DNA from: an uncultured Bacteroidota bacterium
GTDB lineage: Bacteria; Bacteroidota; Bacteroidia; UKL13-3
DNA: 64,000 bases
Direction: 5' to 3'
Assembly (NCBI GenBank): GCA_903834625.1
Contig: CAILJQ010000188.1
Coordinates: forward strand, 1,936 to 65,935
The translations under genes were made by a program, and so were the position numbers. Under the pieces are notes generated by a model. The model saw nothing but the letters and a program-made list of their open reading frames with translations. It was not told where the DNA came from and made no database searches. Of this stretch, positions 751-64,000 are shown piece by piece. Position 1 is the stretch's first letter; each line of letters begins with the position of its first letter.

Positions 751-3700
751 ATGACAATGAATAAGAATACTAACAGATTGATTAAATCAGCTTTCCTCGT
801 TCTGGTGGCGCTGCTTGCAGCACAAGCCTCCATTGCCCGTGAAAATATAGGCTTGCAAAAGAAAAGCAGCAAACCCACGCTTTTGAAATTGGGCGCTGGT
901 TGTGCACCTGCAACACAACAAAAGGACTTGGATTTGAACAACGTAAGAACAACCATTTTGAATGGGGGTGATATGTGGTGGAATATCCAAAATGCACGTT
1001 ATGAAATTCCTAAAGTAGAAACCGGACAAACCTCAAAGCACTCATTATTCTCTGGAGCCTTATGGATTGGTGGGGTTACACAAGGAAACTTACGTATTGC
1101 AGCTCAAACTTACCGTCAGAGCGGTAATGATTATTATCCAGGTGCCTTGCAAATAGATGGTTCAGCCTCTATTACAGCAACACGTTGTAAATATTACGAC
1201 AAAATCTGGAAAGTGACGCTTGCAGAAATTGAAGAATTTAGTGGAAACCCTAACAATTGGAACGATCCAATTGAAGCAATTGGTACTTGGCCAGGTAATG
1301 GTAATGGGGGAGATGGAGCATCTGGTGAAGCAGAATTCTTAGCACCATTCTACGATATGGACAATGATGGAAAATATGATCCAGGTAAGGGTGATTTCCC
1401 TTCATTTGACCAAAACAATGTTAACAATATTCCAGATATGATGTTGTATACCATATACAACGACAAAGGAAATATTCACTCTGAGTCTGAAGGATTACCA
1501 ATTGGTTTGGAATTACATACACAAAGTTTCGCGTATTCAACCAATGATGAAATTAATAACATGACCTTTTATCGTACAACTATTTACAATAGAAGTACTG
1601 AAACAATTGATAGTTGTATTTTTGGTCAGTGGGTAGATGCCGATTTGGGTAACTATTCAGACGACTACGTAGAATGTGATGTGAAGCGTAACTTAGGTAT
1701 TTGTTACAATGGTGATGATAATGATGAAGGTATTTTGGGTTACGGTTTGAACCCACCAAGCGTAGGTGTAAACTTCTTCGAAGGTCCTGCACGTATTGTT
1801 GGAAACGATACATCGGAAATTGGATTAACAAAGTTCGTTTATTACAACAATGACTTCTCAGTTACAGGTAATCCTAGCCGACCTGAGCATTACTGGAATT
1901 ACTTGAATGGTCGTTGGAAAGACGGTTTGAACATTACATACGGCGGTAACGGTAGAGGTGGCTCTGATACAGCAAGTTTTATGTTCCCTGGTAAAACAGA
2001 TCCTGTTGGTAGAGCAGATTGGACAGAGCGTATTGCTGGTAACAACCCTGGTGACAGACGTTTCCTTCAAACTGCTGGTACCTTTAGCTTATTGCCGGGT
2101 TCAAAAAATGAAGTAACAGTGGCGGTAGTTTGGGCAAGAGCTACAACAGGTGGTGCAACTGGTTCATTCAACTTATTAAAAGAAGCTTCTGATAAAGCTT
2201 ATGTGTTATACAAAAATAATTTCAACATTGTTGATGGTCCACGCGTTCCAAATTTGGAGGTGGTAGAACTAGACAAAGAATTAATTTTGAATATTACTAA
2301 CTACCAAACTGCTGAGCGTTATATCGACTCTTCTGCTGGTTTATGTAGCAATAAAACAATCTATAAATTCCAAGGATATCAAATCTTCCAATTGAAGAAA
2401 AATTCTATACCTTCTGATTTATACAATAAAGAAGAAGCCCAATTGGTTGCTCAGTGTGACGTGTTGGATGGAGTTGGATTGATGGTAAATATTATTAATG
2501 ATGCAGACCTAGGTTCTATCAAGAAAATCATGGTAAGTGGTGAAGATAAAGGTGTAAAACATAGTTTTAAAATTACCAAAGATGCCTTCTCTACATTATC
2601 AGATCAAACTTTAGTGAACTTCCAGAACTATTATTATTTGTTGGTTACTTATGCAAGTGCTACCAATTGTACAAATGATGCAACACAGTATTTAGCTGGT
2701 CGTAAAATGGTTGACGGTTCAGCTATTAAAGTTTGGGCAGGAACACCGCATAAACCAACACCACACCAACAAGGAACTCAGTTAAATTCTTTCTACGGTG
2801 ATGGTCCTGAAATTACACGTGTTGAAGGTATTGGTAACAGTGGTAATGCCTTGTTATTAACTCAAGAAACTATTGAAAAAGCTTTAATCGCTCCATATTA
2901 TGTACCAAATCCAACTTATGTTAGAGGTGCTGGTCCGGTTAAGATTAAAGTTATTGATCCATTTAAAGTTCCTTCTGCAGATTTTGAATTGCGTTTAATT
3001 GATAATTCAACATCAACTGTTAAAGGTGATACCTTAACAAGTAATTCTACTATCTGGGTATTAACCAACCTAACCACTGGAGCAAAAGATACAGGTGAAG
3101 CAAAAATCAATTCAAATAACGAGCAAATTTTTGCCGACTTAGGTTTGAGCATTACCTTGTTCCAAGTTGTTGGTCCTGGTAAAGCAGATGACGCAACTGA
3201 TGATTCAAATGGCTTTTTATCGGCTAGTATTGAATACTCAGACCCAACCAATCCATGGCTACCAGGTATTCCTGATGAATTAGCAGCGCTTGTGCCTTTC
3301 AATTGGATCAGGGCTGGAAATACAGGAACTCCTGGATTTACTAATCCATATGAGCATGATTTTGCAGATAACGGAAGAGCTATTGACCCAAGAAGACAAT
3401 ACAACAAAGTATTAGGTGGTACTTGGGCTCCATATTCACTTGCTGCAAGAGCTGTTTCTCCTACACCTACTTATGGTCCAGCTTGGGCTCCTGCAGGTAA
3501 TGGTGGATATTCATCTGATAATCCATTGTCTGACTTAAAATCTGTGTTGGTAGTAATTACTGCCGACAAAACTAAATGGTCGAGATGTGTGGTGTTAGAA
3601 TCAGGAGAAAATCCTGCTTTAACAATCGGTAATCAAGTAAAAATGAACCGCAGAAAATCTCCTTCAGTAGGTAAAGATGGTAAGCCAGATGGTACAGGTA

Positions 3701-4599: not shown

Positions 4600-4624
4600 T
4601 ATTAACCTGTAAAAAAAATTGAAC

Positions 4625-7407: not shown

Positions 7408-8352
7408 TTGTTTCAAACACCAACATATCAAAAAGCCATAAGAATCGCTAAACCATTGTTGGTGGTGGTTTTAACGATATTTATTTTTTATAAATTATTG
7501 TTCACTTATAAAATTCACCAAAGGTTTGAACAATATGATTTGTTGCATCATCATGGATCTTATTTGATTTTGGTTTTAGCCTTTGTTTTGTTATTTGTTA
7601 ATTGGGGAATAGAATCTATCAAATGGCATAAATTAATCAATCGGTTTGAACCAATGCCTTTTTTAACAGCTACCAAGGCTGTTCTATCTGGCGTTACATT
7701 GAGTATTATTACACCTAATCAAATTGGCGACTTTGTGGGTAGGGTTATTCATTTAGAAGTATTAAACAAATTAAAAGGCTCGTTAATTACTGTTATTGGT
7801 CATACCGCTCAAGTGATTATCACCTTGTTTTTTGGTGTAATATCCTTGTCGTACTTCAGCATTCATTATGCAGGAATTTGGTACTGGATACCGGTTGCCA
7901 TTGTCTTTTTAATAGGATTGATTTTTGTTTACTTAAAGATGAATCAAACTTACCAATATGTTAAAGAGGTAAAGTGGTTAAAGGGGTTGGCTGCTTATGC
8001 AGATGTATTTAGCACATTTAACAGCAAAGAGCTTCTTCAAATTTTGGGATGGTCGTTTTTACGATACTTGGTTTTTTTGTTTCAATATTATTTGCTCCTA
8101 CATTTTTATGAGGTTGAGATTGACGTTTTACCCGCTATTGCTTGCATTATTGGAACTTTCTGTGTGCAATCTGTAGTGCCAAGTTTTTTGTTGTTAGAAA
8201 TAGGGTTAAGAGGCGCAAGTGCCTTGGCATTTTTTCAATTATTTAGTAGCAACCAAGAAGGCATTTTATTGGCTGCTTATAGTTTATGGATGGTAAACAT
8301 GTTGTTGCCTGCTCTTATTGGAATGTACTTTATCTATCAAGTGAGGTCATGA
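7408..8352 (+). CDS. Polytopic membrane protein, lysyl-PG-synthase-TM/flippase-like family
   Basis: About 8 predicted TM helices. Translationally coupled to the downstream GT2 gene through an ATGA overlap at 8349-8352. Confidence 0.45.
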   Translation: MFQTPTYQKAIRIAKPLLVVVLTIFIFYKLLFTYKIHQRFEQYDLLHHHGSYLILVLAFVLLFVNWGIESIKWHKLINRFEPMPFLTATKAVLSGVTLSIITPNQIGDFVGRVIHLEVLNKLKGSLITVIGHTAQVIITLFFGVISLSYFSIHYAGIWYWIPVAIVFLIGLIFVYLKMNQTYQYVKEVKWLKGLAAYADVFSTFNSKELLQILGWSFLRYLVFLFQYYLLLHFYEVEIDVLPAIACIIGTFCVQSVVPSFLLLEIGLRGASALAFFQLFSSNQEGILLAAYSLWMVNMLLPALIGMYFIYQVRS

Positions 8353-9488
8353 GTGCGTATATCCTAATTTGTTTATTATTGGCATTTGGATATGCGGCAT
8401 TAATTCTCATCTATTTTGTAGGTTGGATGCTTATTCCTCATTTTAAAACAAGACAAAGGAAAGAATTGGTTCAGACCGAAAGCTTTACCATACTTGTGCC
8501 TGCGAGGAATGAAGAAGCACAAATTAAGGCTTGTATTGACTCTTTGGTTTCTCAAGATTTTGCTTTAGGAGCATTTGAAATTATAATTATCAATGACCAT
8601 TCAACTGATGGCACTGAAACTGTAGTGAGGAAATGTATAGCCTTATATAAAGAGCATAAAATTATTTTGTTGGACGCTGCCAGCGAAGGATTTTCTGGTA
8701 AAAAGGAAGGTATTGCCTTGGGTGTTGATAGGGCCAGTTTTTCAAACATAGCATTAACAGATGCAGATTGTACTAGAGGGAAATATTGGCTGAATACCTT
8801 GGCTCAATTTAGAAAAGAGAAACAAGCACAAATGATATATGCCCCAGTATTTTTTACGGCAAATACCTTATTCGAAAGGTTTCAATCATTGGAGTTTGCG
8901 GGCTTAGTAGGGATTGGTGGTGCTGCTATTCAGTTAAAGAATCCCAATATGTGTAGTGCGGCAAATTTGGTCTTTACCAAACAAGCATTTATAGAAGTGG
9001 GAGGTTATGCAGACAACAAACACTTGGCTAGTGGCGATGACGAATTTTTGTTGCACAAAATATTTAAACGATATCCGCAACAGGTACACTTTCTGAAAAA
9101 TGCTGACGCAATAGTTTATACCTCTCCAAATGCCTCTGTTGAGCAGTTAACACAGCAACGTAGGCGTTGGGTTTCTAAGAGTACCAAATATGAAAACAGG
9201 TATATTACCGCCATTTTGGTTGGGGCTTATTTCTTTAATTTGAGTTTATTAATGAATGGTATTTTGGCATTTTTTATACCAAGTTTTACCAATCTATTTT
9301 TACAACAAATTGGCATTAAAATGGCTGCTGAAGCTTTGTTGCTTGGTGTTATTCTAAGATTTTTTAAACGAAGTGATTTGCTTTTATTGGTGCCATTGGT
9401 GCAACTTTTTCATATTTTGTATGTTATTATCATTGGTGTTTGGGCAAATGTTCAAACCTATACTTGGAAAGAAAGAGAATTAAAATGA
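8349..9488 (+). CDS. Family-2 glycosyltransferase with membrane anchors (processive-type QxxRW motif)
   Basis: ILVPARNEE, NDHSTDGT, TDADC (DxD) and QQRRRW motifs. TM helices at both ends. The ATG at 8349 overlaps the upstream stop. Confidence 0.75.
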   Translation: MSAYILICLLLAFGYAALILIYFVGWMLIPHFKTRQRKELVQTESFTILVPARNEEAQIKACIDSLVSQDFALGAFEIIIINDHSTDGTETVVRKCIALYKEHKIILLDAASEGFSGKKEGIALGVDRASFSNIALTDADCTRGKYWLNTLAQFRKEKQAQMIYAPVFFTANTLFERFQSLEFAGLVGIGGAAIQLKNPNMCSAANLVFTKQAFIEVGGYADNKHLASGDDEFLLHKIFKRYPQQVHFLKNADAIVYTSPNASVEQLTQQRRRWVSKSTKYENRYITAILVGAYFFNLSLLMNGILAFFIPSFTNLFLQQIGIKMAAEALLLGVILRFFKRSDLLLLVPLVQLFHILYVIIIGVWANVQTYTWKERELK

Positions 9489-13626: not shown

Positions 13627-15729
13627 TTATTTAACAATCTTTCTATTGAGCACTTTTCCGTCTTTTTCTATTTGTAAAATGTACAACCCTTTTGGCAGTT
13701 CGCTTAAATCTATTTGCATACTTTGATTGCCTTTGTGGGTTTGGATATTACCTTGAACCAAAAGCTTTCCACTCAAATTATATACGTATACATTGGTTAA
13801 TCCAGCAACTTGTAGGTTTAAATCAATGGTTAACCATTCTGTTACGGGTACAGGATATATTTTTACCTCCATTCCTTCAAATTGGTTCAGACCGTTAGCT
13901 AAATTAACCTGAACCGAATCACAACGCATAGCAGAGCAAGAGTCGGTTTCATTGAGTATGTTCAAGCAAACATAATAGTTGCCAGATGCGCCATAAGCGT
14001 GTGAGGTATTGGCCCCTGTTGCAGTGCTGCCATCACCAAAATTCCAAGTGCTACTCACATTGTTTCCAGAGAAACTATTAAAGGTAAAATTGGCAGGATT
14101 GGTTGGGTCAGCTATACTTTCAAAATCTGCTGCACAGGTTTGATTGCCCATGATAACTCCAGGGAAAAGAATGCTTACACAAAAAACGCTGTAACAATTG
14201 GTGTCTACACTGCTAGTAACATACAAACAGGCAGTATGTAATCCAGGAGTTAAAAAGGTGTGTTCTGCATTGGTTGATGTTTTGGTATTTCCACCATCAA
14301 ACTCCCATCTGTAAATTAAATTTGAGCCAGATGAACGGTTCACAAATCGATAAGTTCCGCTTAGTCCAACTCTGGCATATTCAAATACTGCCACGCATGG
14401 TGTAGGAGCAGTTGCGCCTGTAGTAAAGGTTCTGCAAGTAGTACTACGACATAATGTGTCTGAACCAGAAATTTTATAAATAGTTAAACAAACTGTTTTA
14501 GAACCCAATGTGCTGAAGTAATGAATAGGACTGCAATTGTCGGAGCTAGTGCCATCTCCAAAGGTATAAATACAGCGAGTATATGTTCCTGTTGAGGTAT
14601 TGCTAAACCTAACATAGTGTGGGTTCGAACCGATACTATCTGATTTAATTACATTAAAAGAAGCATTACATGCAGTAGTACCACCAATTACAATCGTTTG
14701 ACAAGTGGTTTGACTGCAGGTAGAATCCAAATTGGTAACAGTTAAGCAAACAGTATAAGTTCCGTTTGTAGCATAGGTATGCGTTTGGAACCTACCCACA
14801 CCTGTAGTACCATCACCAAAAGTATATCTGTATATTAAATTCGAGTTGTTGGTAGAGGCTTCAAAAGAAAATGTTCTAGGTACACTGTTGCTCATCATTT
14901 TACTGAAGTTGGCATTACATGGAGTTTCTCCCACCATTATACTGTCACATTTAGTTTGGGTACAACTAGAATCCTTCTTGGTTATTTTTAAACAAACTTT
15001 GTATTTACCACTTGATGCATAGGTGTGAAATGTATTGCGACCGTCGCTACTTGTTCCATCGCCAAATGTCCATAAGTATCTATAATTTGTATCATTTACC
15101 GCTGGTATGAAATATGCTTTTTTTGCATTAGATGGATCTGGTGTTTTGCTCCAACTGGCATTGCAAACAGGAGCTTCAATTTTTAATGTATCACATTTTT
15201 GATATGTACAACTTGAGTCTTTTTTGGTAACTCTTAAACATACATTGTATTTTGTGTAGGCTGCAAAAACATGACTGCTTACGCGGTTATTTGAAGATGT
15301 GCCATCACCAAATGTGTACAGATAATGATAATTGGTATCATTTAATACGGCTTCGAAAGTGTATTTCTTAGGAATTAAGGGGTCCTTCACACGACTGTGC
15401 ATTGCATTGCAAGGGGTACTTGTTGGTGCTATGTATATAGTATCACAAAAACTGCTGGTACAACTCGAATCTGTTTTTATAATGGTTAAACAAACTAAAT
15501 AGAAACCAGCAGAATTAAATGTTTTGGTTGGGTTCATAGCATCTGAACCTGTTCCATTTCCAAACGACCAATAAGAAGTAAATGGACTGCCCGTAGAGGT
15601 ATTTGTAAAGGAAACTGTTTTGGTAGCATTGTTCACCGTAGCGGTAAACGAAGCCACACAGGCAACTTGCGCTTTAGATGAAAAACTTAAAAGAAATAGA
15701 ACGGTTAGGAGAGTGTATATTTTTTTCAT
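13627..15729 (-). CDS. Secreted protein with seven Cys-rich PKD-like repeats and a T9SS type-A C-terminal sorting domain
   Basis: Signal peptide MKKIYTLLTVLFLLSFSSKAQ. Seven ~90-aa modules each contain (F/W)xFG(D/N)G(T/S) and a CL...DSSC...C pattern. The C-terminus is IYPVPVTEWLTIDL...LPKGLYILQIEKDGKVLNRKIVK. Confidence 0.8.
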   Translation of the reverse strand: MKKIYTLLTVLFLLSFSSKAQVACVASFTATVNNATKTVSFTNTSTGSPFTSYWSFGNGTGSDAMNPTKTFNSAGFYLVCLTIIKTDSSCTSSFCDTIYIAPTSTPCNAMHSRVKDPLIPKKYTFEAVLNDTNYHYLYTFGDGTSSNNRVSSHVFAAYTKYNVCLRVTKKDSSCTYQKCDTLKIEAPVCNASWSKTPDPSNAKKAYFIPAVNDTNYRYLWTFGDGTSSDGRNTFHTYASSGKYKVCLKITKKDSSCTQTKCDSIMVGETPCNANFSKMMSNSVPRTFSFEASTNNSNLIYRYTFGDGTTGVGRFQTHTYATNGTYTVCLTVTNLDSTCSQTTCQTIVIGGTTACNASFNVIKSDSIGSNPHYVRFSNTSTGTYTRCIYTFGDGTSSDNCSPIHYFSTLGSKTVCLTIYKISGSDTLCRSTTCRTFTTGATAPTPCVAVFEYARVGLSGTYRFVNRSSGSNLIYRWEFDGGNTKTSTNAEHTFLTPGLHTACLYVTSSVDTNCYSVFCVSILFPGVIMGNQTCAADFESIADPTNPANFTFNSFSGNNVSSTWNFGDGSTATGANTSHAYGASGNYYVCLNILNETDSCSAMRCDSVQVNLANGLNQFEGMEVKIYPVPVTEWLTIDLNLQVAGLTNVYVYNLSGKLLVQGNIQTHKGNQSMQIDLSELPKGLYILQIEKDGKVLNRKIVK

Positions 15730-18039: not shown

Positions 18040-20696
18040 TTTTTTGGTTTGAGGAGTTCTTCTTGTTTTTTGTAAAAATCGGCAAATTTTTCCACTTTCT
18101 TTTCTTTCAATACTTGTCTGAAGTTTTTCGTGGAAATGATATACTCAGGAGTAGTATCGGTATAGGATAATTTTTTTGTTTTAAAGTCGGTGGCACGAAC
18201 TGTTTTTAAGTACTCGTATGCCGACTTTTGGTTCGGAAATTCTCTTACAGTTATTAATTGAAACCCGTCATTACTCATGATAGCATTTACCCTCAAATTA
18301 TTTTCAGAGGCATATGCTTCATTGAAGGCTGTGTATTCGGAAACAAACATGTCGAAATCAAGTTTGGTGTTTTTTATGGCTAGTACGTAGTAATAGGGTG
18401 TTTCTGTTTCTAAATCAAATTCTGCCAAATTTTGCGAGCTATCATTGCCCATAAATGCCACCTTTTTTTCTTGTCGGTTCAGCACTTCTAAATAATCTTC
18501 GGCTGTTTTACCAACGTCTAATCCTTTGTATGTTTCACTTAATTCTTTGAGTGATTTTTTAAAAGCATCTTTGTCGCCTAACCTACCTATGCATAGGGAA
18601 TTTAATAAGTCAATTTTTGGCTTCATCGTATTACCCGGAAATTGTTTATCAATTTCTGGTTTCATGGCCATGGCCTCTTTGTAGTTGCCATCAGTGTATG
18701 CCTGATACATTTTTTCATAGGCAATTAATAATTGCTTGTTACCTGTGGTTTCGCTGGAGGAGATGGGTTTATTTTGCACCAATAAACTGAGATAGTGGTC
18801 AGGATATTTTTGAATAAGGTTGAACTTATTGTTATCTGCAACTTTGGTGTTTTTTAAATCTGTATTTGATTTGTATAAATAGTAAAATGACTCTGGTTCA
18901 TATTCACTGTTTGGATATTTTCCTTGCAGAATTTCAAAATACTTTTTGCTTTCATTGGCGTTTTTCAATCGGTCGTAATACATTACCCCTAAGTTGTGCA
19001 ATGATTCAAGCATTTTTTGGTTCGAACGCAATTTTTGTTCCTTGCTGAATGGGACATTTTTAATCCACTTGTCCTTATCAGCATTCCCTGTTGAAACATC
19101 CAATTTAGTATCTGGAATTTCTTGTTCCTCTGTTTTTATTTTGTCCTTTGGTTTATCAGTGGAAGTAGTGTCGGTACCAGAAGTTGCATCTGATTTTACT
19201 TTTTCTTTCGCAGCCAATCTCCAATAGTCTTCATTTTGCCTTTGGCCCCATTTCTTATTAGAGAAAAATTCTGCAGCACCTGCATTCACAAGTGTAGGAT
19301 TGTAAAAGTACCAGCTATTGTCTGTTCCCCCCGGAATATTGATGGCAGGAGCGGCAATTAGGTTTTGGTTATTGGCCAAGCTTGCCTGCATTTTTGCCTT
19401 TTTCTTTGCTTCTTTTGCAGCAATTTCTTCTAGCCTTTTTTGTTCGCTTATCCAACCATTTACTTTACGTTCTAATTCGTCTTTGCTTAGTAATGAAAGA
19501 CGTTGAAGGGAGTCTTCTGTTTCATAAACATTGATATTTAAAATCAACTCAGACAATACGGTTTTGGTTTCTTTGATAGACTCAAAATTTTTATGTTTTT
19601 TATCTAAAAACTGAACAGTACTATCATAGTAAGCTTGAGCATTTTTATATTCTTTTCTATCAAAAAATAACTTCGCCAATTCATAATGACTCAAAGCTTT
19701 TTGGTTTTGATTTTTTGTGCTGTTAGCAACAGACTTTCTGAAGTCTTTGATGGCTTCAGGTTGGTTTTTTATAGCAAGATCTATCCTGCCTAATTCATAA
19801 TATATTTGGTCGAGATAATCGATGTTTTTCTCATCAGCCGCCATGCGCTTGAGATTCTTGCGCACGCGCTCTACAGATTTTGGGTCTTTGAGGTCATAAA
19901 TTCCTGTGAGAGCAATATTCGCATTAAAGGCAAAGTCGTAAGGAGGTATATAGGAAATTACTTTATTGAAAAAGTAACTTGCTTCTGGTTTTTTGTTTGC
20001 CTGCAAACACAGTTGACCAAGGATATAATTGTACCTAATTTTTTGGTCTTTGGTGAGTTTTCCTTTCAGAGCCATTTTAAGGTTATCAATAGCGGTAGTA
20101 TATTTATCTTGCTTGATATTAATATCTGCAGCAGTAGCATAAATAAGAGCGATATCTTCTTTTCGGAAATTCTTTTTAGCTAACAATAATCCCATCAAGG
20201 CTTCGGCTTCACCTAATTTATTTAAGCCAACATAGTTCCTGGCTATATAACAAGTACTGGCATTGGAATAGGCTCCATCTTTGTATTTACCCAACATAAA
20301 CTGAAAGGTTTCAATCGAGGCGAAGTAGTCTTGTTTATAAAATCTACATTCCCCAATTCCATAATATGCATCATCCGTAAACGAGCCTATGGTATGCATT
20401 TGTATGGTTTTTGAGAACTTTTTGATGGCTTCATCTAATACATTTCCCGCTGCCTTGGCAGATTCTGGCGTACCCAATGGAAACACATCTAATATTTTAC
20501 TAAAGTTATTTATATGTGAGTTCTGTAATTGCGTTACTGCATCTAGAAGTTTTTGTTGCCCGTTGAAGTACACGTTAAAATGCCCGGTAAGGGTATGGAA
20601 TTTTCTATTAAGCCATTTATCCTTCGTGGGATTGCAACCCCATGTCCAGATTAAACCGGTGAGGATGAAAATAATTATGTTCCTGTTTCTGTACAA
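18036..20696 (-). CDS. TPR-repeat lipoprotein, probable T9SS component PorW/SprE
   Basis: Lipobox (WTWGC). The N-terminal NRKFHTLTGHFNVYFNG resembles the SprE/PorW N-terminal motif. Multiple TPR-like helices, 886 aa. An ATGA overlap links it to the downstream PBP1A start. Confidence 0.5.
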   Translation of the reverse strand: MYRNRNIIIFILTGLIWTWGCNPTKDKWLNRKFHTLTGHFNVYFNGQQKLLDAVTQLQNSHINNFSKILDVFPLGTPESAKAAGNVLDEAIKKFSKTIQMHTIGSFTDDAYYGIGECRFYKQDYFASIETFQFMLGKYKDGAYSNASTCYIARNYVGLNKLGEAEALMGLLLAKKNFRKEDIALIYATAADINIKQDKYTTAIDNLKMALKGKLTKDQKIRYNYILGQLCLQANKKPEASYFFNKVISYIPPYDFAFNANIALTGIYDLKDPKSVERVRKNLKRMAADEKNIDYLDQIYYELGRIDLAIKNQPEAIKDFRKSVANSTKNQNQKALSHYELAKLFFDRKEYKNAQAYYDSTVQFLDKKHKNFESIKETKTVLSELILNINVYETEDSLQRLSLLSKDELERKVNGWISEQKRLEEIAAKEAKKKAKMQASLANNQNLIAAPAINIPGGTDNSWYFYNPTLVNAGAAEFFSNKKWGQRQNEDYWRLAAKEKVKSDATSGTDTTSTDKPKDKIKTEEQEIPDTKLDVSTGNADKDKWIKNVPFSKEQKLRSNQKMLESLHNLGVMYYDRLKNANESKKYFEILQGKYPNSEYEPESFYYLYKSNTDLKNTKVADNNKFNLIQKYPDHYLSLLVQNKPISSSETTGNKQLLIAYEKMYQAYTDGNYKEAMAMKPEIDKQFPGNTMKPKIDLLNSLCIGRLGDKDAFKKSLKELSETYKGLDVGKTAEDYLEVLNRQEKKVAFMGNDSSQNLAEFDLETETPYYYVLAIKNTKLDFDMFVSEYTAFNEAYASENNLRVNAIMSNDGFQLITVREFPNQKSAYEYLKTVRATDFKTKKLSYTDTTPEYIISTKNFRQVLKEKKVEKFADFYKKQEELLKPKK

Positions 20697-38502: not shown

Positions 38503-38518
38503 TTCGGTTCGAACCGAA
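38503..38518. repeat. Perfect 16-bp palindrome TTCGGTTCGAACCGAA between convergent genes
   Basis: Self-complementary over all 16 nt. It is the only structured element in the 75-bp gap between 38465 and 38541. Confidence 0.8.
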
Positions 38519-38540
38519 ACTGCTTTAACATATTTTGAAA

Positions 38541-43325: not shown

Positions 43326-44327
43326 ATGAAGTCAGCAGTATTGCATGCAATCAATGCAGCATATGTATACCAAGAATTTGAAAAGCCAATACCTGCATCT
43401 GATGAGGTATTAATTCGTGTTCAACACGCTGCTCTTAACCACAGAGATGTTTGGATTCAAAAAGGACAATATGCAGGATTGGTGTTTCCAATTATTTGTG
43501 GCAGCGATGGATGCGGTGTGGTGGAGGCGGTTGGCTCAGACCGAAACAAACATTGGATTGGTAAAGAAGTGGTGGTAAACCCTTCGCTTAATTGGGGTGA
43601 TAGCGAAAGATATCAAGCTAAAAATTATGTGATTTTAGGATTGCCCAACCATGGAACTTTTGCGGAATATGTATGTGTACCTGCACGATTAGTTTTTGAG
43701 AAACCTTTTCATTTGAGTTCTGCCCAAGCTGCTGCTTTTCCATTGGCAGGTTTAACAGGTTTTAGGGCTTTGTTTGGAAGAGCAAAGGCGAAAGCAGGGG
43801 AAACAGTTTTGGTAACAGGAATAGGAGGAGGAGTGGCCTTGTTTGCTGCACAATTTGCCATAGCAGCGGGTTGTAAAGTTTATGTTACAAGTAGCAGTGA
43901 AGAGAAAATTGAAAAGGCCAAGAAAATGGGCGCATTGGGTGCTGTTAATTATAAAGAAGTAGATTGGCATAAAAAACTGGCCCAAGAAAGTGGAGGTTTT
44001 GATGTTATTGTAGATGGAGCGGGAGGAGCAGATTTTGCCAAACTAATTGATTTATGTAAGCCAGGTGGAAGGATAGTTTGTTATGGTGCAACAATGGGAT
44101 CTTGGAACGCAGGCGTGCCAGCAAAGGTGTTCTGGAAACAAATAGATATTTTAGGTTCAACCATGGGCACAGATGCAGAATTTGAAAAAATGATAGGGTT
44201 TATTGCTGAACACAAATTGGTTCCAACTGTTGCTCAAATATTTTCTTTAAGTGATTGTGAGATGGCTGCCAGATACATGGATGAAGGCAAACAATTTGGT
44301 AAAATTGTTTTAGAAATACCTGCTTAA
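43326..44327 (+). CDS. Zinc-type alcohol dehydrogenase / quinone oxidoreductase (MDR family)
   Basis: GSDGCGVVEAVG and GIGGGVALFAAQFA (Rossmann). ATG at 43326. Confidence 0.8.
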   Translation: MKSAVLHAINAAYVYQEFEKPIPASDEVLIRVQHAALNHRDVWIQKGQYAGLVFPIICGSDGCGVVEAVGSDRNKHWIGKEVVVNPSLNWGDSERYQAKNYVILGLPNHGTFAEYVCVPARLVFEKPFHLSSAQAAAFPLAGLTGFRALFGRAKAKAGETVLVTGIGGGVALFAAQFAIAAGCKVYVTSSSEEKIEKAKKMGALGAVNYKEVDWHKKLAQESGGFDVIVDGAGGADFAKLIDLCKPGGRIVCYGATMGSWNAGVPAKVFWKQIDILGSTMGTDAEFEKMIGFIAEHKLVPTVAQIFSLSDCEMAARYMDEGKQFGKIVLEIPA

Positions 44328-45019
44328 TGTTTGCTTGGAAGAAATTCCTAATTAGCCTGGTTGGCTTGCTTTTATTGATAAGTGCATTGCTATATGCACG
44401 AAACCTCAGTTATCTCATACCAGGTTATCATTTCTTTGTGTATACGCCAACAAAGTATTCGAAAACATTAACCGAAATAAGGCAAAAAAAACAAGGGAAG
44501 AAGAATGCCAACCTAACGCAGCAACAACAATTTTTGGTTGAAAGCCTTACGCAAAAAGTATTTCCTTATTGGTATGGTACTCGTTGGAATTTTTATGGTA
44601 CTACACTTACTCCTGGCGAAGGGAGTATAGCATGTGGGTATTTTGTAACCACTACCTTACAGGCCATTTCTTATCCAATAGATAGAGTTAAACTAGCTAA
44701 ATGTGCTTCCGAGAAAATGATCAGAGCCTTGGTTCAGCCCAGATATATATGGCATTTTAATGGGATGGATTTGTTGCCATTTTGTAGTGGATTATTAGAG
44801 AAGGGTAAAGGTTTATATATCATCGGATTGGATAATCATACCGGCTACTTGTGGGCTAAAGGCAATGGTGAATTACGGTTCATTCACTCCAGCGGTCGCT
44901 TTCCTTTTTGTGTAATAAATGAAGATGCCCGTGAATCTGTTGTTTTGAGGATTTCAAGATACAAGGTGGTTGGTAAAATTAGTGCAGATGAAAAGTTCCT
45001 TCAACATTGGTTTGAATAG
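44327..45019 (+). CDS. Membrane-anchored hypothetical protein, possible papain-like (NlpC/P60- or transglutaminase-like) Cys/His fold
   Basis: N-terminal TM helix. Candidate nucleophile context GSIACGYFV and later LDNHTGYLW. The start overlaps the upstream stop (TAATG). Confidence 0.35.
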   Translation: MFAWKKFLISLVGLLLLISALLYARNLSYLIPGYHFFVYTPTKYSKTLTEIRQKKQGKKNANLTQQQQFLVESLTQKVFPYWYGTRWNFYGTTLTPGEGSIACGYFVTTTLQAISYPIDRVKLAKCASEKMIRALVQPRYIWHFNGMDLLPFCSGLLEKGKGLYIIGLDNHTGYLWAKGNGELRFIHSSGRFPFCVINEDARESVVLRISRYKVVGKISADEKFLQHWFE

Positions 45020-45022: not shown

Positions 45023-45037
45023 TTGGCTCGAACCGAA
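45023..45037. repeat. Variant copy of the word (TTGGCTCGAACCGAA) immediately after the stop at 45019
   Basis: One mismatch from TTGGTTCGAACCGAA. Confidence 0.5.
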
Positions 45038-46079: not shown

Positions 46080-46811
46080 ATGAGTTTTGATATTCAGCCC
46101 TGGATGGGTAGAACGGAATTATTATTAGGTCATGACCAATTACATAAATTGGTTAATTCAAATGTATTGGTTGTAGGCCTTGGAGGAGTTGGAGGAATAG
46201 CAGCAGAAATGATTGCAAGAAGTGGTGTTGGAAGAATGACTATTGTAGATGCAGATACGGTTGATCCTACCAATAGAAACAGGCAAATTCCGGCGTTGAA
46301 AAGTACTGAAGGAAAAGTTAAGGCAGAGGTATTAGCGGAGCGCTTGTTAGATATCAATCCCGATTTACAATTACGTGTAATTCCTGAGTATTTTAGAGAC
46401 CAACTAACCTTTGATGTGTTAGATTCTGAGAAATGGGATTATGCCTTGGATTGTATTGATACACTCTCTCCCAAGGTGTTTTATATTAAAGCTTGCATTG
46501 AAAGAGGTATTCCAATTGTAAGCAGCATGGGGGCTGGTTCAAAAGTAGATCCAACCATGGTGAAAGTGGCTGATATATCTGAAACATATAATTGTCATTT
46601 GGCACGCTATACAAGAAAATATTTGCATAGGTTAGGTGTTTACAGAGGTGTTAAAGCAGTATTTTCTGCTGAACCAAAAGTGGTAAACTCCCAAGTAATG
46701 TTAATGGAAGCACGCAATAAAAAATCTGCTGTGGGTACCATTAGTTATATGCCAACTGTATTTGGGTGTACGGTTGCTTCAGTGGCTATAAGAGATTTAT
46801 ATGCCAGATAG
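46080..46811 (+). CDS. tcdA: tRNA threonylcarbamoyladenosine dehydratase (ThiF/E1-like)
   Basis: VLVVGLGGVGGIAAEMIARSGVGRMTIVDADTVDPTNRNRQ. Confidence 0.8.
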   Translation: MSFDIQPWMGRTELLLGHDQLHKLVNSNVLVVGLGGVGGIAAEMIARSGVGRMTIVDADTVDPTNRNRQIPALKSTEGKVKAEVLAERLLDINPDLQLRVIPEYFRDQLTFDVLDSEKWDYALDCIDTLSPKVFYIKACIERGIPIVSSMGAGSKVDPTMVKVADISETYNCHLARYTRKYLHRLGVYRGVKAVFSAEPKVVNSQVMLMEARNKKSAVGTISYMPTVFGCTVASVAIRDLYAR

Positions 46812-47984
46812 TTATTTTCCGCTTTTTTGAAGGTAAAATAAAATTTTCATCCCCAAGCTTACAAACTGATAGGAGAGGAAGTTTCGAACCTTGCGCCAAA
46901 GTTGTCCTTTTCGATGGTATAAAGCTGGATGAACAATTTGGCTGTGGTTTTCTAATGAATGTATGATTTGATTTTTTGCGAGTTTATGAAACGTTGGGTC
47001 TAAAATTTCAACATTACATTCCACCGATCCAAAATCGCTTAAATGGTTAAGATTGTAAGAACCAATGCACATCCAATCTTCATCTGCAAAGGCAATTTTT
47101 GCATGCAATACACTTGCTTGCCATTCCCTAATTTGTACGCCAGCTTTGAGTAGGTCTTCATAAAAAAATTGGGTAGCATATTGTACTATTTTTACATCTG
47201 ATTTGGCTCCTAAAACCAACTCAACTTGAACCCCTCTTTTGGCTGCTCTTTTTAATAATCTTTTGAGTGCGGGTGAGGGTAAAAAATAACTGCTAATGAG
47301 TAAGATGTTATGTTGGGCATTCCTTATTTTTTGCCGGTATTGCCTACTAATTCCAAATTTTGCTTTGAGCCAATAGTTTTGTAAAACCCTTATTTGTTTA
47401 TCAGCTTGTTTAGATTTTTCTTCTTCATTTGAGGGAAGTGTTTTAGGCTGAAACAGGTTCAGACCATTTTCTATACCTTTACAAATGCGTAACAAATCTT
47501 GCACAACAGAACCCTTTACCCAAATGCCATAATCAAGCCAATTTCCTTCCTCGCCCCAATGGCTATAATTGTTTGAAATGTTAATACCACCTAACATGGC
47601 CACTTGCTGGTCAAAAATGAAAATTTTGTGATGCAGTCGAACACCAACATGGTATTTAAATGCCAATTTAAATTTAGAAAAGAGTTGTATATCAACACCT
47701 CTTTGCTTTAAGGCACTTTCCCATTCTTTGGGGAAATTGGCACTACCATAGGCGTCTAGTCGTATAAATATTTTTACTCCTCTTCTGGCAGCCGCCAATA
47801 GCGCGTCATAAATTACTTTACCTGTTTGGTCGTTATCAAAAATATAAACTTGAAAATGAATGCTTGTTTGTGCTAATTCTATTTGAAAAAGTAGCTCATC
47901 AAAGAAGGGTTTACCGCTCTCTAGCAACCGTAAATTAGCATTGTTATGCCATGGGAAAATGCCAATTTTTTTGCGCCAAACCAT
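46812..47984 (-). CDS. Phospholipase D / cardiolipin synthase-like protein (two HKD motifs)
   Basis: LHHKIFIFD and LHAKIAFAD (HxKxxxxD, twice). Confidence 0.8.
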   Translation of the reverse strand: MVWRKKIGIFPWHNNANLRLLESGKPFFDELLFQIELAQTSIHFQVYIFDNDQTGKVIYDALLAAARRGVKIFIRLDAYGSANFPKEWESALKQRGVDIQLFSKFKLAFKYHVGVRLHHKIFIFDQQVAMLGGINISNNYSHWGEEGNWLDYGIWVKGSVVQDLLRICKGIENGLNLFQPKTLPSNEEEKSKQADKQIRVLQNYWLKAKFGISRQYRQKIRNAQHNILLISSYFLPSPALKRLLKRAAKRGVQVELVLGAKSDVKIVQYATQFFYEDLLKAGVQIREWQASVLHAKIAFADEDWMCIGSYNLNHLSDFGSVECNVEILDPTFHKLAKNQIIHSLENHSQIVHPALYHRKGQLWRKVRNFLSYQFVSLGMKILFYLQKSGK

Positions 47985-50230: not shown

Positions 50231-50584
50231 TTATCCTCCAGCCTTTTTTGCTTTATAGTTATCTTTTAATAAATAATTAAGAATTTTGTCTCTAAAATCA
50301 CCTTGAATAAGGATTTCTCCATCCTTGGTTGAACCACCCACCCCGCAGTGTTTTTTGAGGGCACTTCCAAGTGTACTTAGATTTTCTTCTGAACCAATAA
50401 AACCAGTTATGCGAGAGACCAATTTTCCCCCACCTTTTCTGTCTAAAAATATTTTGAGTGATTGTTGATTTGGAGCCAATGTTTCTTGTGCTTCCTCCTG
50501 CTCATGAGTGTATTCAAAATTTGTATCAGTTGAATAAACTACGCCATTTTTGTTCTTATTCTTGTTACTCATTTGTTGGGACAA
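50231..50584 (-). CDS. SUI1/YciH-family translation initiation factor
   Basis: [14 protein letters not shown]...[26 protein letters not shown]. Confidence 0.75.
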
Positions 50585-51519: not shown

Positions 51520-52884
51520 ATGAACTGGATTACTTTATTGCAAGCTTTTAGGTATGGAGATACCGAGGCAAGGAACTTAGGAGATGGACAAAACAGAAGT
51601 ATCTTTGAACAAGATTACGATAGGATTATCTTTTCTACACCTTTCAGGCGATTACAAGATAAAACCCAAGTAATTCCTTTGCCAGAGCATGATTTTGTGC
51701 ATAACAGACTTACCCATAGCATTGAAGTGAGTAGTGTTGGCAGAACCTTGGGGAAAATTGTGGGTGCCGAATTGTTGAAGAAATATCCAGAGTTACAAGA
51801 ACAGTCGATGTCGTTTCATGATTTTGGGGCCATTGTAGCGGCCGCAAGTTTGGCACATGATATTGGCAATCCTCCATTCGGACATAGCGGTGAATCGGCC
51901 ATTGCAGAGTATTTTTTAAATGGTCCCGGGGCTCGGTTTGAACCAATGCTGAATGAGTTTGAATGGCAAGATTTAATTAGGTTTGAAGGAAATGCAAATG
52001 GCTTTAGGATATTAACCAATGCCGGTAATATGACGCAGGGAGGAATTCGTTTGAGTTACCCAACCTTGGCAGCATTTTCTAAATATCCTAAAGCTAGCCT
52101 GCCAATTTTGCCTAAAGGAAGAGCAAGCGAGAAAAAGTTTGGATACTTTCAAGCCGAGAAACAACTCTTTCATGATGTGGCCAAAGTACTTGATTTGATT
52201 GCTGTGGAAGAAAATGGTGAACGCTACTATCGCCGACATCCACTTACCTTTTTAGTGGAGGCTGCTGATGATATTTGTTATCACATCATTGATTTTGAAG
52301 ATGGCTTGCGTTTGAATTGGATTGATTTTGACGTGGCAGAGAAATTATTGATACCCATTGCAGGTAAATCTTTTTATGAAGAGAGTTATAGAAAAATAAA
52401 GCACCGCGACGAAAAGGCTTCATACCTCAGGGCAGTAGCAATAAATAGTTTGATCAAAGAATTAGCAGACATTTTTTTAATACATGAAGAAGAAATTTTA
52501 AATGGTTCATTTGATACTTCTCTTATTCAATTGAGCAAGTACATTCTGCAAATAGAGGAGATTAAATCCATCTCACTTCAAAAGGTTTATAAGGCAAGGG
52601 AGGTTATTGAAATTGAAACTGCCGGATTTGAGGTAATAGGAGGCTTATTAGATATGTTTACAAAAGCCCTTTGGCAAATTTGTGAACCACAAACAAGTAA
52701 GAAAAGTTACCATGACCGAAAAATTGCGGAACTACTTCCAATACATCTTAAAGAACCTTCAGAAGAATTGAAGAATAATTATTACCTCAGGTTATTACAT
52801 GTTTGTGAGTATGTGGCTGGATTAACAGATAGGCATGCCATTAGTCTTTTTAGGAAAATGAAAGGAATTGAATTGCCCAGATAG
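51520..52884 (+). CDS. dgt: dGTPase-family HD-domain triphosphohydrolase
   Basis: FEQDYDRIIFSTPFRRLQDKTQV, HNRLTHSIEV and HDIGNPPFGH. ATG at 51520. Confidence 0.88.
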   Translation: MNWITLLQAFRYGDTEARNLGDGQNRSIFEQDYDRIIFSTPFRRLQDKTQVIPLPEHDFVHNRLTHSIEVSSVGRTLGKIVGAELLKKYPELQEQSMSFHDFGAIVAAASLAHDIGNPPFGHSGESAIAEYFLNGPGARFEPMLNEFEWQDLIRFEGNANGFRILTNAGNMTQGGIRLSYPTLAAFSKYPKASLPILPKGRASEKKFGYFQAEKQLFHDVAKVLDLIAVEENGERYYRRHPLTFLVEAADDICYHIIDFEDGLRLNWIDFDVAEKLLIPIAGKSFYEESYRKIKHRDEKASYLRAVAINSLIKELADIFLIHEEEILNGSFDTSLIQLSKYILQIEEIKSISLQKVYKAREVIEIETAGFEVIGGLLDMFTKALWQICEPQTSKKSYHDRKIAELLPIHLKEPSEELKNNYYLRLLHVCEYVAGLTDRHAISLFRKMKGIELPR

Positions 52885-56968: not shown

Positions 56969-56990
56969 ATTTGGTTCAGACCGAAACCAA
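56969..56990. repeat. Intergenic copy TTTGGTTCAGACCGAAACCAAA in a divergent promoter region
   Basis: Exact core at 56972-56981. The flanks TTTGGTT/AACCAAA can pair. Confidence 0.7.
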
Positions 56991-59949: not shown

Positions 59950-60999
59950 ATGTATACCAAAGAACAACTTTTTCACTTTACTGAAAGTGTTTTCCAAAAA
60001 TGTGGCATGCCTGCCGCCGATGCCGCTTTAGCTGCTGATGTGTTATTAAGTGCCGATATGCGTGGCATAGACTCCCATGGCGTAGCACGACTTTCTGGTT
60101 ATGTAAGGCTATATGAAGCAGGCAGAGCCAATATGGTTGCCCATCATAAAGTTATTCATGAAACACCCTCAACTGCCACCATTGATGCAGATAGAGGTTT
60201 GGGTTTGGTTGTTGCGCCAAAGGCAATGGATATTGCCATTAAAAAAGCAAAACAAGTTGGTACAGGTTGGGTAGCCATTCAAAATTCTAACCATTTTGGC
60301 ATTGCAGCATACCATGCCATGAAGGCTTTACCGCATGATATGATTGGTTTTGCCATGACCAATGCAAGTCCATTAGTTGCACCCACTCATTCAAAAGAAA
60401 GAATGTTGGGTACCAACCCAATTTGTATGGCAGTGCCAACCGGAGAAAACCGTCCCTTTGTACTTGATATGGCAACATCTGGGGCCGCCAATGGTAAACT
60501 AGAAATTGCCCAACGATCAGGTAAATCATTGCCCAATGGATGGGTTCAAACCAAAGAAGGCGAAGCTTCAAACAACGCCGATGAATTAAAAAATGGAGGT
60601 TCTTTGTTGCCTCTGGGCGGACATAAAGGATATGGCTTGGCTTCTATGGTTGATATATTAAGCGCCATTTTATCTGGCGCCAACTACGGACCGTGGGTTC
60701 CACCTTTTGTGGCCTTCTTAAATCCTTTAGAGAATTTGCCGGGTAATGGTATTGGACATTTTTTGGGTGCAATGCGTATAGATGCATTTAGGCCAGCCTC
60801 AGATTTTAAAGAGCATATGGATCTTTGGATCAATCGTTTTAAAGATTCGGTTCGAACCAACCCTGAAGTGCCCGTGTTGATTCCTGGCGAGCCTGAGTTT
60901 GATTTGTATGCTGAAAGAGAAGTGAAAGGAATACCTTTAAATGAAGTGGTTGAAAAAGACCTTCAGTCATTGGCAGAAAAATTGGGCCTTAGCCTATAA
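59950..60999 (+). CDS. Ldh_2-family oxidoreductase (malate/L-lactate/ureidoglycolate dehydrogenase type 2)
   Basis: RGIDSHGV, NSNHFGIAAYH and GGHKGYGL motifs. Confidence 0.8.
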   Translation: MYTKEQLFHFTESVFQKCGMPAADAALAADVLLSADMRGIDSHGVARLSGYVRLYEAGRANMVAHHKVIHETPSTATIDADRGLGLVVAPKAMDIAIKKAKQVGTGWVAIQNSNHFGIAAYHAMKALPHDMIGFAMTNASPLVAPTHSKERMLGTNPICMAVPTGENRPFVLDMATSGAANGKLEIAQRSGKSLPNGWVQTKEGEASNNADELKNGGSLLPLGGHKGYGLASMVDILSAILSGANYGPWVPPFVAFLNPLENLPGNGIGHFLGAMRIDAFRPASDFKEHMDLWINRFKDSVRTNPEVPVLIPGEPEFDLYAEREVKGIPLNEVVEKDLQSLAEKLGLSL

Positions 61000-61951: not shown

Positions 61952-64000
61952 ATGAAAATTATTCTATTACCCAGGTTTTTGTTTTTACTAATAAGCCTTA
62001 CCTTCCTAACAACTTCACACGCACAAACCTATCAACAAAAATTGGGCGGAGTTTGCTTTCGCTTCGACGACTATCAAAACCCTGCGAATATTCAGCAAAT
62101 GCGGGCCTTATTTAATAAATATGGTTACAAGTTTACCTATGCCGTAAATATGGGATTAGGTGAATTGTATAATGATACCGCATTTTGGAATGTACTCAAA
62201 CAAATGGAAACAGATGGCCATGAAATTGCCGACCAATCTCCCTCAGATTGCAGCCATTATTTTGATACCAAAACACCAGAACAAGCCCAAGCCTTTGCTA
62301 ACAGACCAGGTGTAGACCATGTTTCAATTGTTACAAGTTCATTTAACAGAGTTTGTTTAAAATACCAAATACTTAATGCCAATGGTGCAGGCGATGAAGG
62401 CAAAGTTGATATCAGTGGTAACAGAATCATTAGCAAATCGGCTGGTGAATTTGCTTGGAGTAAATTAAATAATGGTAGGTTTACTTCCCATTTGTATTTT
62501 CCTACCATAGGAAAATTGGTAACCATGTACGATATCAAAAATGCCAATGCCGCAGATGTGGATACCATTTTTGTAAAGTCGTTTTGGAAAGAAGATATAA
62601 CACTAACAAACTCCTCTAATGTCTCCTTTAAAAAATTAACTCCTTATGATTTGAGTATTGAAAAGGAAGGTCTTCAAACCATGACAGAATTTACCTTCAA
62701 AATTTTTGAAGCACATAATTTAAAATACCCTGTTAGTTTTATTCATCCAGGAGGCTCACATCCATATGTAGATAGACAAGTGTTAAAAGATGCTTTTGAA
62801 CAATTTGGGTATAAAGGAGGAGCAGCCTATCCATATGAGAAGAGAGGAATATCTTATTATAATCCTAAAAGCCTCAACCAATTTTCGCTGCAAGGGGGCG
62901 ATATTACTCCCGAAAACAATACCATTGATGAATGTAAAAAATGGATTGCCGAATACAATGCAAAAAATACCATAGTGGTTTCTATAAATCACTTTACCTC
63001 TTTGGGCGCTGTTTATAGCTTCCCACAAATGCTGCTTAATTTAGAGCAGATATTAATTTGGTGTAAGGCCAATGGCATTGCAGTTAAAACATACAAAGAA
63101 TGGAACAGCTATTATGCCGATGGTTTTTTTGACCAAACAGATGATATCTTTCCTCCTTTACAAAATGATTTTGATAAAGATGGTGCCCCAGATGGATTGA
63201 CATTAGGAGCAAGTGGGCTGATAGATACCATTAATGGGGTAACATACAGTAAAAATGTTTGCTTTAAGGTTTCTACCAATGGTACCTCTTTGTTTTCAAC
63301 TTTTAAAATTTACGGTCTGAACCGAGGAAAAAATACCCTATACTTAAGCACCAAAGGAGGATTGAGCACCAACGACTACTTAAATTTAGTAATTAATTTA
63401 CCTGAGTTGGGAATTAGCAAATACGTGAATGTTGCTACCAATACTACAGCCTATACAGAAAGGGCAGTTGATATTGAGGTACCCAATGGAGCTACCTATA
63501 TCAATCTTTCTATAAACTATTACACACAAACCGGACAAAGAGTTTATGTGAGTGGCATCAAATTGAAATCAGCTAAAAAGCCATCTTTTAAAGCATTTGT
63601 GATTGAACGTAAAGCCCATGAGGTTTTTCCAAATATCAACCTTTCATCTTTTGCAGCTTGTAACGGGTATACCCAAAGTCAGCTAAGTTTTTTTGTTCTT
63701 ACACAACCCAATCATTCAACAGCAAGTCTTACGGGTAGTAGCTTGCGTTTATTGCCCAAAAACAACCGCTTCTGGGTAGGCATAGATTCAATAAGAATTT
63801 CTGTGAAAGCGCCAGACAATACAGCAGATACTACATGGATTCAAATTCGTTCGGTATTAGGTAAAGTGTGTAAAGACCAATTGGTTTTAATTGCAATAAC
63901 TAAAGATACCATCAATGATTTGTCATACGCTTGGGCTTCAAAACCTGTTGACCCCTTTTTGGTAAGCACCAATACCAACACTGTTTATGGCAAACCTTCT
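61952..64000 (+). CDS. Large secreted protein, 3' end outside the window; N-terminal region is polysaccharide-deacetylase (CE4)-like
   Basis: ATG at 61952 followed by 683 stop-free codons to the window edge (my own translation). Signal peptide FLFLLISLTFLTTSHAQ. CFRFDDY (compare TFDDG) and DGHEIADQS (compare GHEIGxH). The ORF is not in the supplied track. Confidence 0.65.
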   Translation, partial: MKIILLPRFLFLLISLTFLTTSHAQTYQQKLGGVCFRFDDYQNPANIQQMRALFNKYGYKFTYAVNMGLGELYNDTAFWNVLKQMETDGHEIADQSPSDCSHYFDTKTPEQAQAFANRPGVDHVSIVTSSFNRVCLKYQILNANGAGDEGKVDISGNRIISKSAGEFAWSKLNNGRFTSHLYFPTIGKLVTMYDIKNANAADVDTIFVKSFWKEDITLTNSSNVSFKKLTPYDLSIEKEGLQTMTEFTFKIFEAHNLKYPVSFIHPGGSHPYVDRQVLKDAFEQFGYKGGAAYPYEKRGISYYNPKSLNQFSLQGGDITPENNTIDECKKWIAEYNAKNTIVVSINHFTSLGAVYSFPQMLLNLEQILIWCKANGIAVKTYKEWNSYYADGFFDQTDDIFPPLQNDFDKDGAPDGLTLGASGLIDTINGVTYSKNVCFKVSTNGTSLFSTFKIYGLNRGKNTLYLSTKGGLSTNDYLNLVINLPELGISKYVNVATNTTAYTERAVDIEVPNGATYINLSINYYTQTGQRVYVSGIKLKSAKKPSFKAFVIERKAHEVFPNINLSSFAACNGYTQSQLSFFVLTQPNHSTASLTGSSLRLLPKNNRFWVGIDSIRISVKAPDNTADTTWIQIRSVLGKVCKDQLVLIAITKDTINDLSYAWASKPVDPFLVSTNTNTVYGKPS

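Follow-up and report, generated by a model that had tools for sequence, protein, structure and literature searches.

After 45 years of work, only two families, both proteobacterial, are to our knowledge documented to take up DNA in a sequence-specific manner. The closest described signals are the DNA uptake sequence (DUS) of the Neisseriaceae, the uptake signal sequence (USS) of the Pasteurellaceae and, as a hyperabundant word, the cyanobacterial HIP1. In the Bacteroidota, Riemerella is naturally transformable, some proteins of its machinery have no known function, and R. columbina favours its own DNA; a k-mer search in Riemerella genomes returned A-rich words only and no uptake sequence or DUS-like word (PMC7965970, PMC8459023). 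We analysed a 64,000-nucleotide stretch of an uncultured Bacteroidota chromosome (contig CAILJQ010000188.1; hereafter the window), in which an earlier note had singled out the 10-mer GGTTCRRACC as resembling an uptake sequence or iterated palindrome. In the window species, the 10-mer extends a shorter, asymmetric core that is clade-wide, TYGGTTCAR. Within this one recent clade, a directional, sequence-specific process creates and maintains the ~9-14 bp asymmetric word in both orientations against coding constraints. As the note had supposed, no such signal appears to be described: literature searches found no report of the 10-mers, nor of any uptake sequence in Bacteroidota.

A pattern search located all 19 copies of GGTTCRRACC listed in the note, corresponding to 23 strand-matches because the four palindromes are counted on both strands. 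Eighteen of the 19 coordinates were correct; the copy given as 56972 starts at 56973, and the 16-mer around it at 56971 rather than 56970. The identical 16-mers at 7641/32359/51933 and at 8466/56971 are present, as are the one-mismatch copies reported at 19019, 35105, 43533 and 45025. Dinucleotide-preserving shuffles gave 0.28 expected strand-matches, with none of 100 shuffles reaching the observed count, and Markov models of orders 1-4 trained on the window gave 0.26-0.79, confirming the claimed over-representation. At orders 5-6 the expectation is inflated by the motif's own sub-words. The overall enrichment is ~40-90-fold, and the highest-ranked 9-mers and 10-mers of the window against a third-order model were all sub-words of the motif. 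The base composition measured for the window (A 30.5, C 17.7, G 19.7, T 32.2%; G+C 37.4%) is close to that assumed in the note. The sites comprise six copies of GGTTCAAACC (centre AA), nine of GGTTCAGACC (AG) and four of the palindrome GGTTCGAACC (GA); the GG centre, GGTTCGGACC, has no copy in the window and the remaining GGTNNNNACC words have at most one each. One-mismatch variants of the 10-mer are enriched 2.6-fold (55 against 21 expected), chiefly at positions 2, 7, 8 and 9.

The sites occur at a density of ~0.30/kb and their spacing is exponential, i.e. random (coefficient of variation 0.92, Kolmogorov-Smirnov P=0.91). The asymmetric 10-mers are orientated 7:8 within one uniformly positive GC-skew domain, in agreement with the strand balance first reported. 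Fourteen of the 19 sites are coding, with 63314 counted as such, and five are intergenic; given that non-coding DNA makes up ~6% of the window, the intergenic excess is ~4-fold (P=0.004). The palindromic copies at 29571 and 38506 both lie between convergent genes. In metagenome contig L184, an inverted pair (345-410) consists of CATTGGTTCAAACCG, 12 bases that are unpaired in the fold, and CGGTTTGAACCAATG followed by a T run, and folds at -24 kcal/mol (z = -9). The note had proposed mapping terminator-proximal positions, and an inverted arrangement of this kind is familiar from neisserial DUS.

Coding copies are found in several frames and on both strands relative to transcription, with a sense:antisense ratio within genes of ~1:1, and they encode GLN (six), LVQT/WVQT/SVRT (five), RFEP (two) and GS[ND] (two, one of them palindromic). 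In the shuffled-codon control that had been proposed, synonymous-codon shuffling with the proteins preserved gave a mean of 1.47 coding 10-mers (maximum 5 in 1000) compared to the 13 observed, while codon-order shuffling gave 0.23. These deficits indicate that codon choice and amino-acid sequence are both bent toward the word, and that the force acts on DNA.

The anatomy of the element was examined using a logo of 29 non-palindromic sites pooled from the window and independent metagenome stretches, with search-seed sites left out. The logo reads T-Y-GGTTC-A-R-ACC-(G)-(A) and holds ~20 bits, with Y at -1 in 24/29 sites, G at +10 in 16/29 and A at +11 in 17/29. Its left half is strict and its right half relaxed (T at -2 in 28/29 against the mirror A in 17/29), which makes the element asymmetric. 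The flanks are therefore conserved as the note had stated, but not symmetrically, and the description as an iterated palindrome finds no support: 4 of the 19 copies are palindromic, and the core TYGGTTCAR is asymmetric, so that the word is not a perfect palindrome of the HIP1 type. Similarity among the aligned copies is confined to ~14 bp, with nothing past -3/+12, i.e. two to three flanking bases. The core was found 25 times in the window against 2.83 in shuffles. Within the window's genes it was found 23 times, against 4.65 after synonymous and 2.85 after codon-order shuffling, and in four frame/strand classes. The TYGGTTCARACC extension is carried by 15 of the 25 core copies of the window species, the fuller form being TYGGTTCARACC(G)(A). 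The palindromic variant GGTTCGAACC is tolerated as well.

A metagenome scan with CATTGGTTCRRACCGA yielded 120 stretches. Nine of these (G+C 0.36-0.40), originating in at least four samples of which JGI Ga0163151 is one, carried extra copies. Eight of the nine are dissimilar to the window and still motif-rich (non-seed 10-mer density 0.23/kb), suggesting that the word is spread over whole genomes. In contigs anchored on atpA from 80 GTDB species representatives, the motif was not enriched, including in the nearest loci, L002-L005 (86-91% AtpA identity). Neither these four nor the 76 other Bacteroidota loci had a hyperabundant word of their own, ordinary repeats aside.

As an unbiased test, IleS homologues were taken across the identity range and their contigs were compared. 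The 10-mer was frequent (~0.15-0.3/kb) in ileS-anchored loci at 86, 84, 84, 83, 82 and 80% IleS identity, rare in two further loci (82 and 80%), and absent from those at 78 and 75%. The shorter word TYGGTTCA was present at 0.46-1.03/kb, or 3-6 times the second-order expectation, in all nine ileS-anchored loci with at least 80% IleS identity, and at 0-0.14/kb, no more than expected, in all loci at 78% or below and in L002-L005; no further atpA-anchored locus was flagged as enriched in it. The word is thus conserved in related genomes, as the note had suggested examining, up to a boundary at 78-80% IleS identity that corresponds to ~95% AtpA identity. In L274, one of the relatives, TYGGTTCAR occurs 21 times in 23 kb (~0.9/kb; 1.29 in shuffles) with an orientation of 10:11. 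Across the window, the eight unrelated metagenome stretches and the nine ileS-anchored loci, core density is ~0.4-1.0/kb and that of the 10-mer 0.30/kb. The window belongs to an uncultured Bacteroidia clade close to Sphingobacteriales, whose members are labelled 'Bacteroidia bacterium' or 'Sphingobacteriales bacterium' at NCBI. Members of the clade include GCA_021740845.1, GCA_021739685.1, GCA_027487835.1, GCA_040960315.1 and the JGI contigs Ga0163151 (3300020057), Ga0558126 and Ga0114347; GCA_025359805.1, GCA_964535575.1, JAKLJI01 and JAIYDG01 are outgroups.

The word has dialects among the lineages of the clade: its ninth base can be A or G and the ACC extension varies, and orthologous sites, too, show such differences. 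The A:G ratio at the ninth base is 37:3 in L274, L276 and L277 compared to 7:23 in L268, L269 and L270 (Fisher P = 2e-9), and the window uses both bases. The ACC extension, present on 15/25 core copies in the window, is found on 6/21 in L274 and is missing from the TYGGTTCAG copies of L270, which tend to TTGGTTCAGCC, and of L271. At columns 660 and 2406 of the ileS codon alignment, G-lineages have TTGGTTCAG and A-lineages TTGGTTCAA, and the outgroup sequence is unrelated. In a crude IleS tree the A-lineages do not form one group.

Most sites turn over between species. When the window was compared with the syntenic contigs L221/L269 (10.7 kb aligned, 73% nucleotide identity), one of five site positions was shared, and the differences were substitutions without indels. 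The shared position is the ileS leader site (34993), which is also kept in L268, L269 and L274. At window site 32361, the orthologous sequence in ten relatives is unrelated, again through multiple substitutions without indels. The serS site at 29117, on a conserved RGLNR peptide, has counterparts in L268 (20848), L269 (16861), L271 (16475), L274 (18144) and L276 (16270). It is found even in lineages otherwise without the full 10-mer, suggesting that it is probably older than the enrichment. Its centre tracks the local dialect, AG in L268/L269 and AA elsewhere, and it illustrates how a near-site already in place can be tuned. Single-nucleotide differences from strain L001, which is 99.6% identical to the window, showed a pattern that gave no information on recombination tracts.

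In the six features of the genomic signature that were tested, with abundance counted on contigs and metagenome stretches, the word agrees with DUS and USS. We consider biased uptake of DNA, with homologous recombination thereafter, the most likely mechanism and hold this reading with about even confidence. All computational properties behind the original comparison with uptake sequences were reproduced, except that the 10-mer is not the basic unit; uptake bias as the force, and with it the existence of a receptor, we infer from the genomic signature. Fragments carrying the word would be preferred by a DNA receptor on the cell surface that belongs to the natural-transformation machinery, and their homologous recombination would spread new copies through the population by molecular drive, with or without selection for uptake of same-species DNA. 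Copies of the word arise and disappear through ordinary base substitution, some of it changing amino acids where conservation is poor, and a genome-wide directional force, whose sequence preference would differ slightly among lineages, would keep the density of the word high. It falls a little short of an even chance, in our estimate, that TYGGTTCAR serves as a self-recognition tag for transformation in a genus- to family-level freshwater/environmental clade, with species-level dialects as partial barriers to gene flow and a receptor unrelated to ComP; it would then be the first uptake-signal system outside the Proteobacteria.

Several points weigh against biased uptake. Any sequence-specific selective force on DNA, for example on the sites of an abundant clade-specific DNA-binding protein, would yield all the computational features. 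At 0.3/kb, the full 10-mer is ~3-fold less dense than classical DUS/USS, with the core at 0.5-1/kb. ComEC, DprA, ComF and ComEA were not among the annotatable window genes, with ~8 genes at 54.1-64 kb, short open reading frames (ORFs; e.g. 21361-22509) and several unmatched ORFs unassigned. There is also an unexplained hint of polarity, in that the minus strand carries 10 of the window's 11 TYGGTTCAA copies (binomial P ~0.01). TYGGTTCAG is distributed 9:5 in the opposite direction, and relative to transcription TYGGTTCAA is ~5:6, indicating no gene-strand effect. In L274 the word is distributed 10:11, and the skew in the window is possibly due to chance.

The main alternative is that the word is bound by a clade-specific chromosomal protein that is abundant in the cell (nucleoid, cohesion/segregation, or a recombination/repair cofactor), its sites being under selection in cis, with protein and site co-evolving to produce the dialects. 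Such a protein would explain asymmetry and dialects as well as uptake does; density, spacing and turnover fit it less well, and we consider it unlikely. A ~20-bit asymmetric motif with a strict left and a relaxed right half resembles a protein recognition site, clade restriction and a ninth base that varies by lineage would be expected if word and protein co-evolved, and the ileS leader site keeps its position across species. In contrast, known chromosome-organising sites such as parS, matS, NBS and SBS number tens to about a hundred per genome, compared to one word per 1-3 kb here, and most sites of the word turn over between species and are randomly spaced. There is no overall replichore polarity, and the 7:8 orientation within a single GC-skew domain excludes polar functions of the Chi or KOPS type. 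We regard it as improbable that a modification or repair system (a clade-specific methyltransferase, very-short-patch (VSP)-type repair or a restriction-linked bias) generates the word incidentally by turning near-matches into it, as suggested for HIP1, for which 15- to 300-fold enrichment without a proven uptake role sets a precedent (PMC5861425). The palindromic variant contains TTCGAA, GGTTCGAACC differs from GGTTCAAACC by a single C-to-T (deamination-type) transition, and the 2.6-fold enrichment of one-mismatch neighbours would fit as well; however, the commonest form, GGTTCAGACC, and the core TYGGTTCAR are non-palindromic and lack CG, and no methyltransferase or Vsr gene is among the annotated window genes. 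Known VSP-type biases are ~2-fold on 5-mers, and 40-90-fold on 9- to 12-mers exceeds them.

We assign a very low probability to the remaining explanations, namely dispersed repeats or fragments of miniature inverted-repeat transposable elements (MITEs), a recurring peptide, codon-pair bias, an RNA hairpin resembling the tRNA T-arm, and chance. A single dispersed repeat family, which the note had considered, is refuted by the short extent of similarity (~14 bp), by the 14 of 19 copies inside genes and by their origin through substitution rather than insertion. The word also falls outside the class of repetitive extragenic palindromic (REP) elements and MITEs, which are conserved over at least 20 bp, usually form hairpins and are essentially intergenic. 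GLN at 6 of the 14 coding sites would favour a peptide, but the four frame/strand classes, the five intergenic sites and the codon shuffles (1.5 vs 13) refute a protein motif, including the single-frame motif that had been envisaged, and codon bias. An RNA hairpin draws on GGTTCRA, which matches the universal tRNA T-loop consensus, and on the TY...RA flanks, which can pair to give a 4-bp stem and a 6-nt loop. This likeness is probably coincidental, and an RNA role is unlikely since sense and antisense copies in genes are about equal. Rfam at the gathering threshold matched no tRNA, riboswitch or other family in the window (1-64000), ruling out a known RNA family, and chance is dismissed by the shuffles. 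A phage origin was likewise rejected, as an IMG/VR scan with ATTGGTTCRRACCGAA gave 65 single matches and no enriched contig.

The window is ordinary core chromosome, with greA, ruvC, recO, the atp operon, serS, lspA, ileS, clpP and PBP1a, and it contains components of the type IX secretion system (T9SS), namely PorV-like, SprE/PorW and PorZ. Together these genes place it in the Bacteroidota. A 1282-aa ORF at 751-4599 (+), without a Pfam or NCBIfam match and with no identical protein on record, lies directly upstream of a PorV/PorQ-family gene (4619-5761) encoding a PorV-like outer-membrane protein, and may be a T9SS cargo or partner. At 30356-31609 (-), a 417-aa protein combines lysine/alanine-rich, histone H1-like (HC2) tandem repeats with a C-terminal DksA/TraR zinc finger. 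The word that ranks second in over-representation in the window, GCGAAAAAGCC (eight exact copies), is a tandem coding repeat of this gene with 15- to 60-bp units, and was set aside. Proteins at the same position in relatives vary in length (130-438 aa), and a Logan assembly breaks there. Four genes at 35032-38554 (an unknown 317-aa protein, DUF2200, PsbP-like and beta-lactamase-like) separate ileS from an MMPL transporter gene; the two are adjacent in nine of ten related contigs. Each junction of the segment is ~40 bp from a motif copy (34993, 38506), and the segment starts with copy 35134. This single case could represent an imported segment. The sites are listed in Table 1.

Table 1. Copies of the word in the window: full 10-mers, core-only copies lacking the ACC extension, and one-mismatch copies
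Form	Position	Strand	Context
Full motif GGTTCAAACC	1744..1753	-	Coding (GLN)
Full motif GGTTCAAACC, CATT/GA flanks	7643..7652	-	Coding (RFEP)
Full motif GGTTCAGACC	8468..8477	+	GT2 gene (LVQT)
Full motif GGTTCAGACC	13884..13893	+	Coding antisense (GLN)
Palindromic form GGTTCGAACC	14622..14631	.	Coding (GSN)
Full motif GGTTCAGACC	26405..26414	+	atpA; conserved GSD, via synonymous codon choice
Full motif GGTTCAAACC	29117..29126	-	serS (RGLNR)
Palindromic form	29571..29580	.	Intergenic, convergent serS / lspA
Full motif GGTTCAAACC	32361..32370	-	ileS (LVQT); window species only
Full motif GGTTCAGACC	34191..34200	-	ileS (LVQT); partly common to L270 and L277 only
Full motif	34993..35002	-	ileS 5' leader, downstream of TAnnTTTG-type -7 box
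Full motif	35134..35143	+	Intergenic; left edge of four-gene insertion
Palindromic form (TTCGGTTCGAACCGAA)	38506..38515	.	Intergenic, convergent genes; right edge of four-gene insertion
Full motif	47456..47465	+	PLD-like gene, coding antisense (GLN); not at L221 orthologous site
Full motif, CATT/GA flanks	51935..51944	-	Coding (RFEP)
Full motif	56973..56982	+	Intergenic, divergent genes
Full motif GGTTCAAACC	60543..60552	+	Coding (WVQT)
Palindromic form	60849..60858	.	Coding (SVRT)
Full motif	63314..63323	-	Coding (GLN); ORF runs off window end
Core-only TTGGTTCAA	10666..10674	-	
Core-only TTGGTTCAA	12896..12904	-	
Core-only TTGGTTCAA	13753..13761	-	
Core-only TCGGTTCAG	13909..13917	-	
Core-only TTGGTTCAA	16686..16694	-	
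Core-only TCGGTTCAG	18474..18482	+	
Core-only TTGGTTCAG	23653..23661	+	
Core-only TTGGTTCAA	27210..27218	-	One mismatch to full form
Core-only TTGGTTCAG	35650..35658	+	
Core-only TTGGTTCAG	44729..44737	+	Followed by CCC; one mismatch to full form
Core-only TTGGTTCAG	46669..46677	-	
Core-only TTGGTTCAG	50389..50397	-	
Core-only TTGGTTCAA	55594..55602	-	
Core-only TTGGTTCAA	58846..58854	+	One mismatch to full form
One-mismatch copy of palindromic form, TTGGTTCGAACG	19017..19028	+	
One-mismatch copy TCGGTTCGAGCC	45025..45036	-	
One-mismatch copy GGCTCAGACC	43533..43542	+	Flanks matching
One-mismatch copy GATTCAGACC	35105..35114	+	29 bases from site 35134

If biased uptake is the cause, the word would be a third, independent case in another phylum and would show that uptake specificity evolves repeatedly; it would also suggest that abundant uncultured Bacteroidota possess a natural competence that has gone unrecognised. 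Uptake specificity also bears on whether transformation evolved as bacterial sex. The phylogenetic onset is sharp (78% vs 80% IleS identity), and a comparison of gene content across the boundary could identify the receptor. With another function, the word would still represent a new genome-wide signal similar to HIP1, one whose origin can be dated, and would also be a practical marker for binning, for recognition of foreign DNA in these genomes and for the design of transforming DNA.

Among the described systems, Riemerella shares the phylum of the word's clade, which is a different class-level lineage and uncultured. HIP1 (GCGATCGC) is, like the word, hyperabundant both inside and outside the genes of a single phylogenetic group, and its function is still debated; it is a strict palindrome linked to methylation, whereas the word is mostly non-palindromic with asymmetric flanks. 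The Pasteurellaceae USS (Hin-USS AAGTGCGGT, Apl-USS ACAAGCGGT) resembles the word in having about two thirds of its copies in genes, in several frames and at poorly conserved residues, in the enrichment of one-mismatch forms, in random placement over the genome, and in at least two subtypes with a common core (TYGGTTCA here, GCGGT in USS). The two are dissimilar in sequence, AT-rich segments flanking the word are not seen, and a role of the word in uptake is putative.

The Neisseriaceae DUS (GCCGTCTGAA and its dialects) and the word both have a short asymmetric core with weaker flanks, strong enrichment and both orientations. Both are found in coding and preferentially in intergenic DNA and as inverted, terminator-like hairpin pairs (L184 here), and both have a genus- or family-level specificity and dialects that are one or two positions apart. 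They have the 7-mer GTCTGAA in common, and the reverse-complement form of the word, CGGTCTGAA, is one base off the Neisseria DUS core CCGTCTGAA; the resemblance that the note had pointed out exists at the sequence level but is most probably coincidental, given the different phylum. The word differs from DUS in its phylum, in having no known ComP-type pilin receptor, in the ~3-fold lower density of the full word, in one variant that is a perfect palindrome and in that its uptake role is putative. Together, these comparisons place the word in a known class, that of uptake-signal-like hyperabundant words, for which both its phylum and its sequence are new, and its phylogenetic onset is unusually well resolved.

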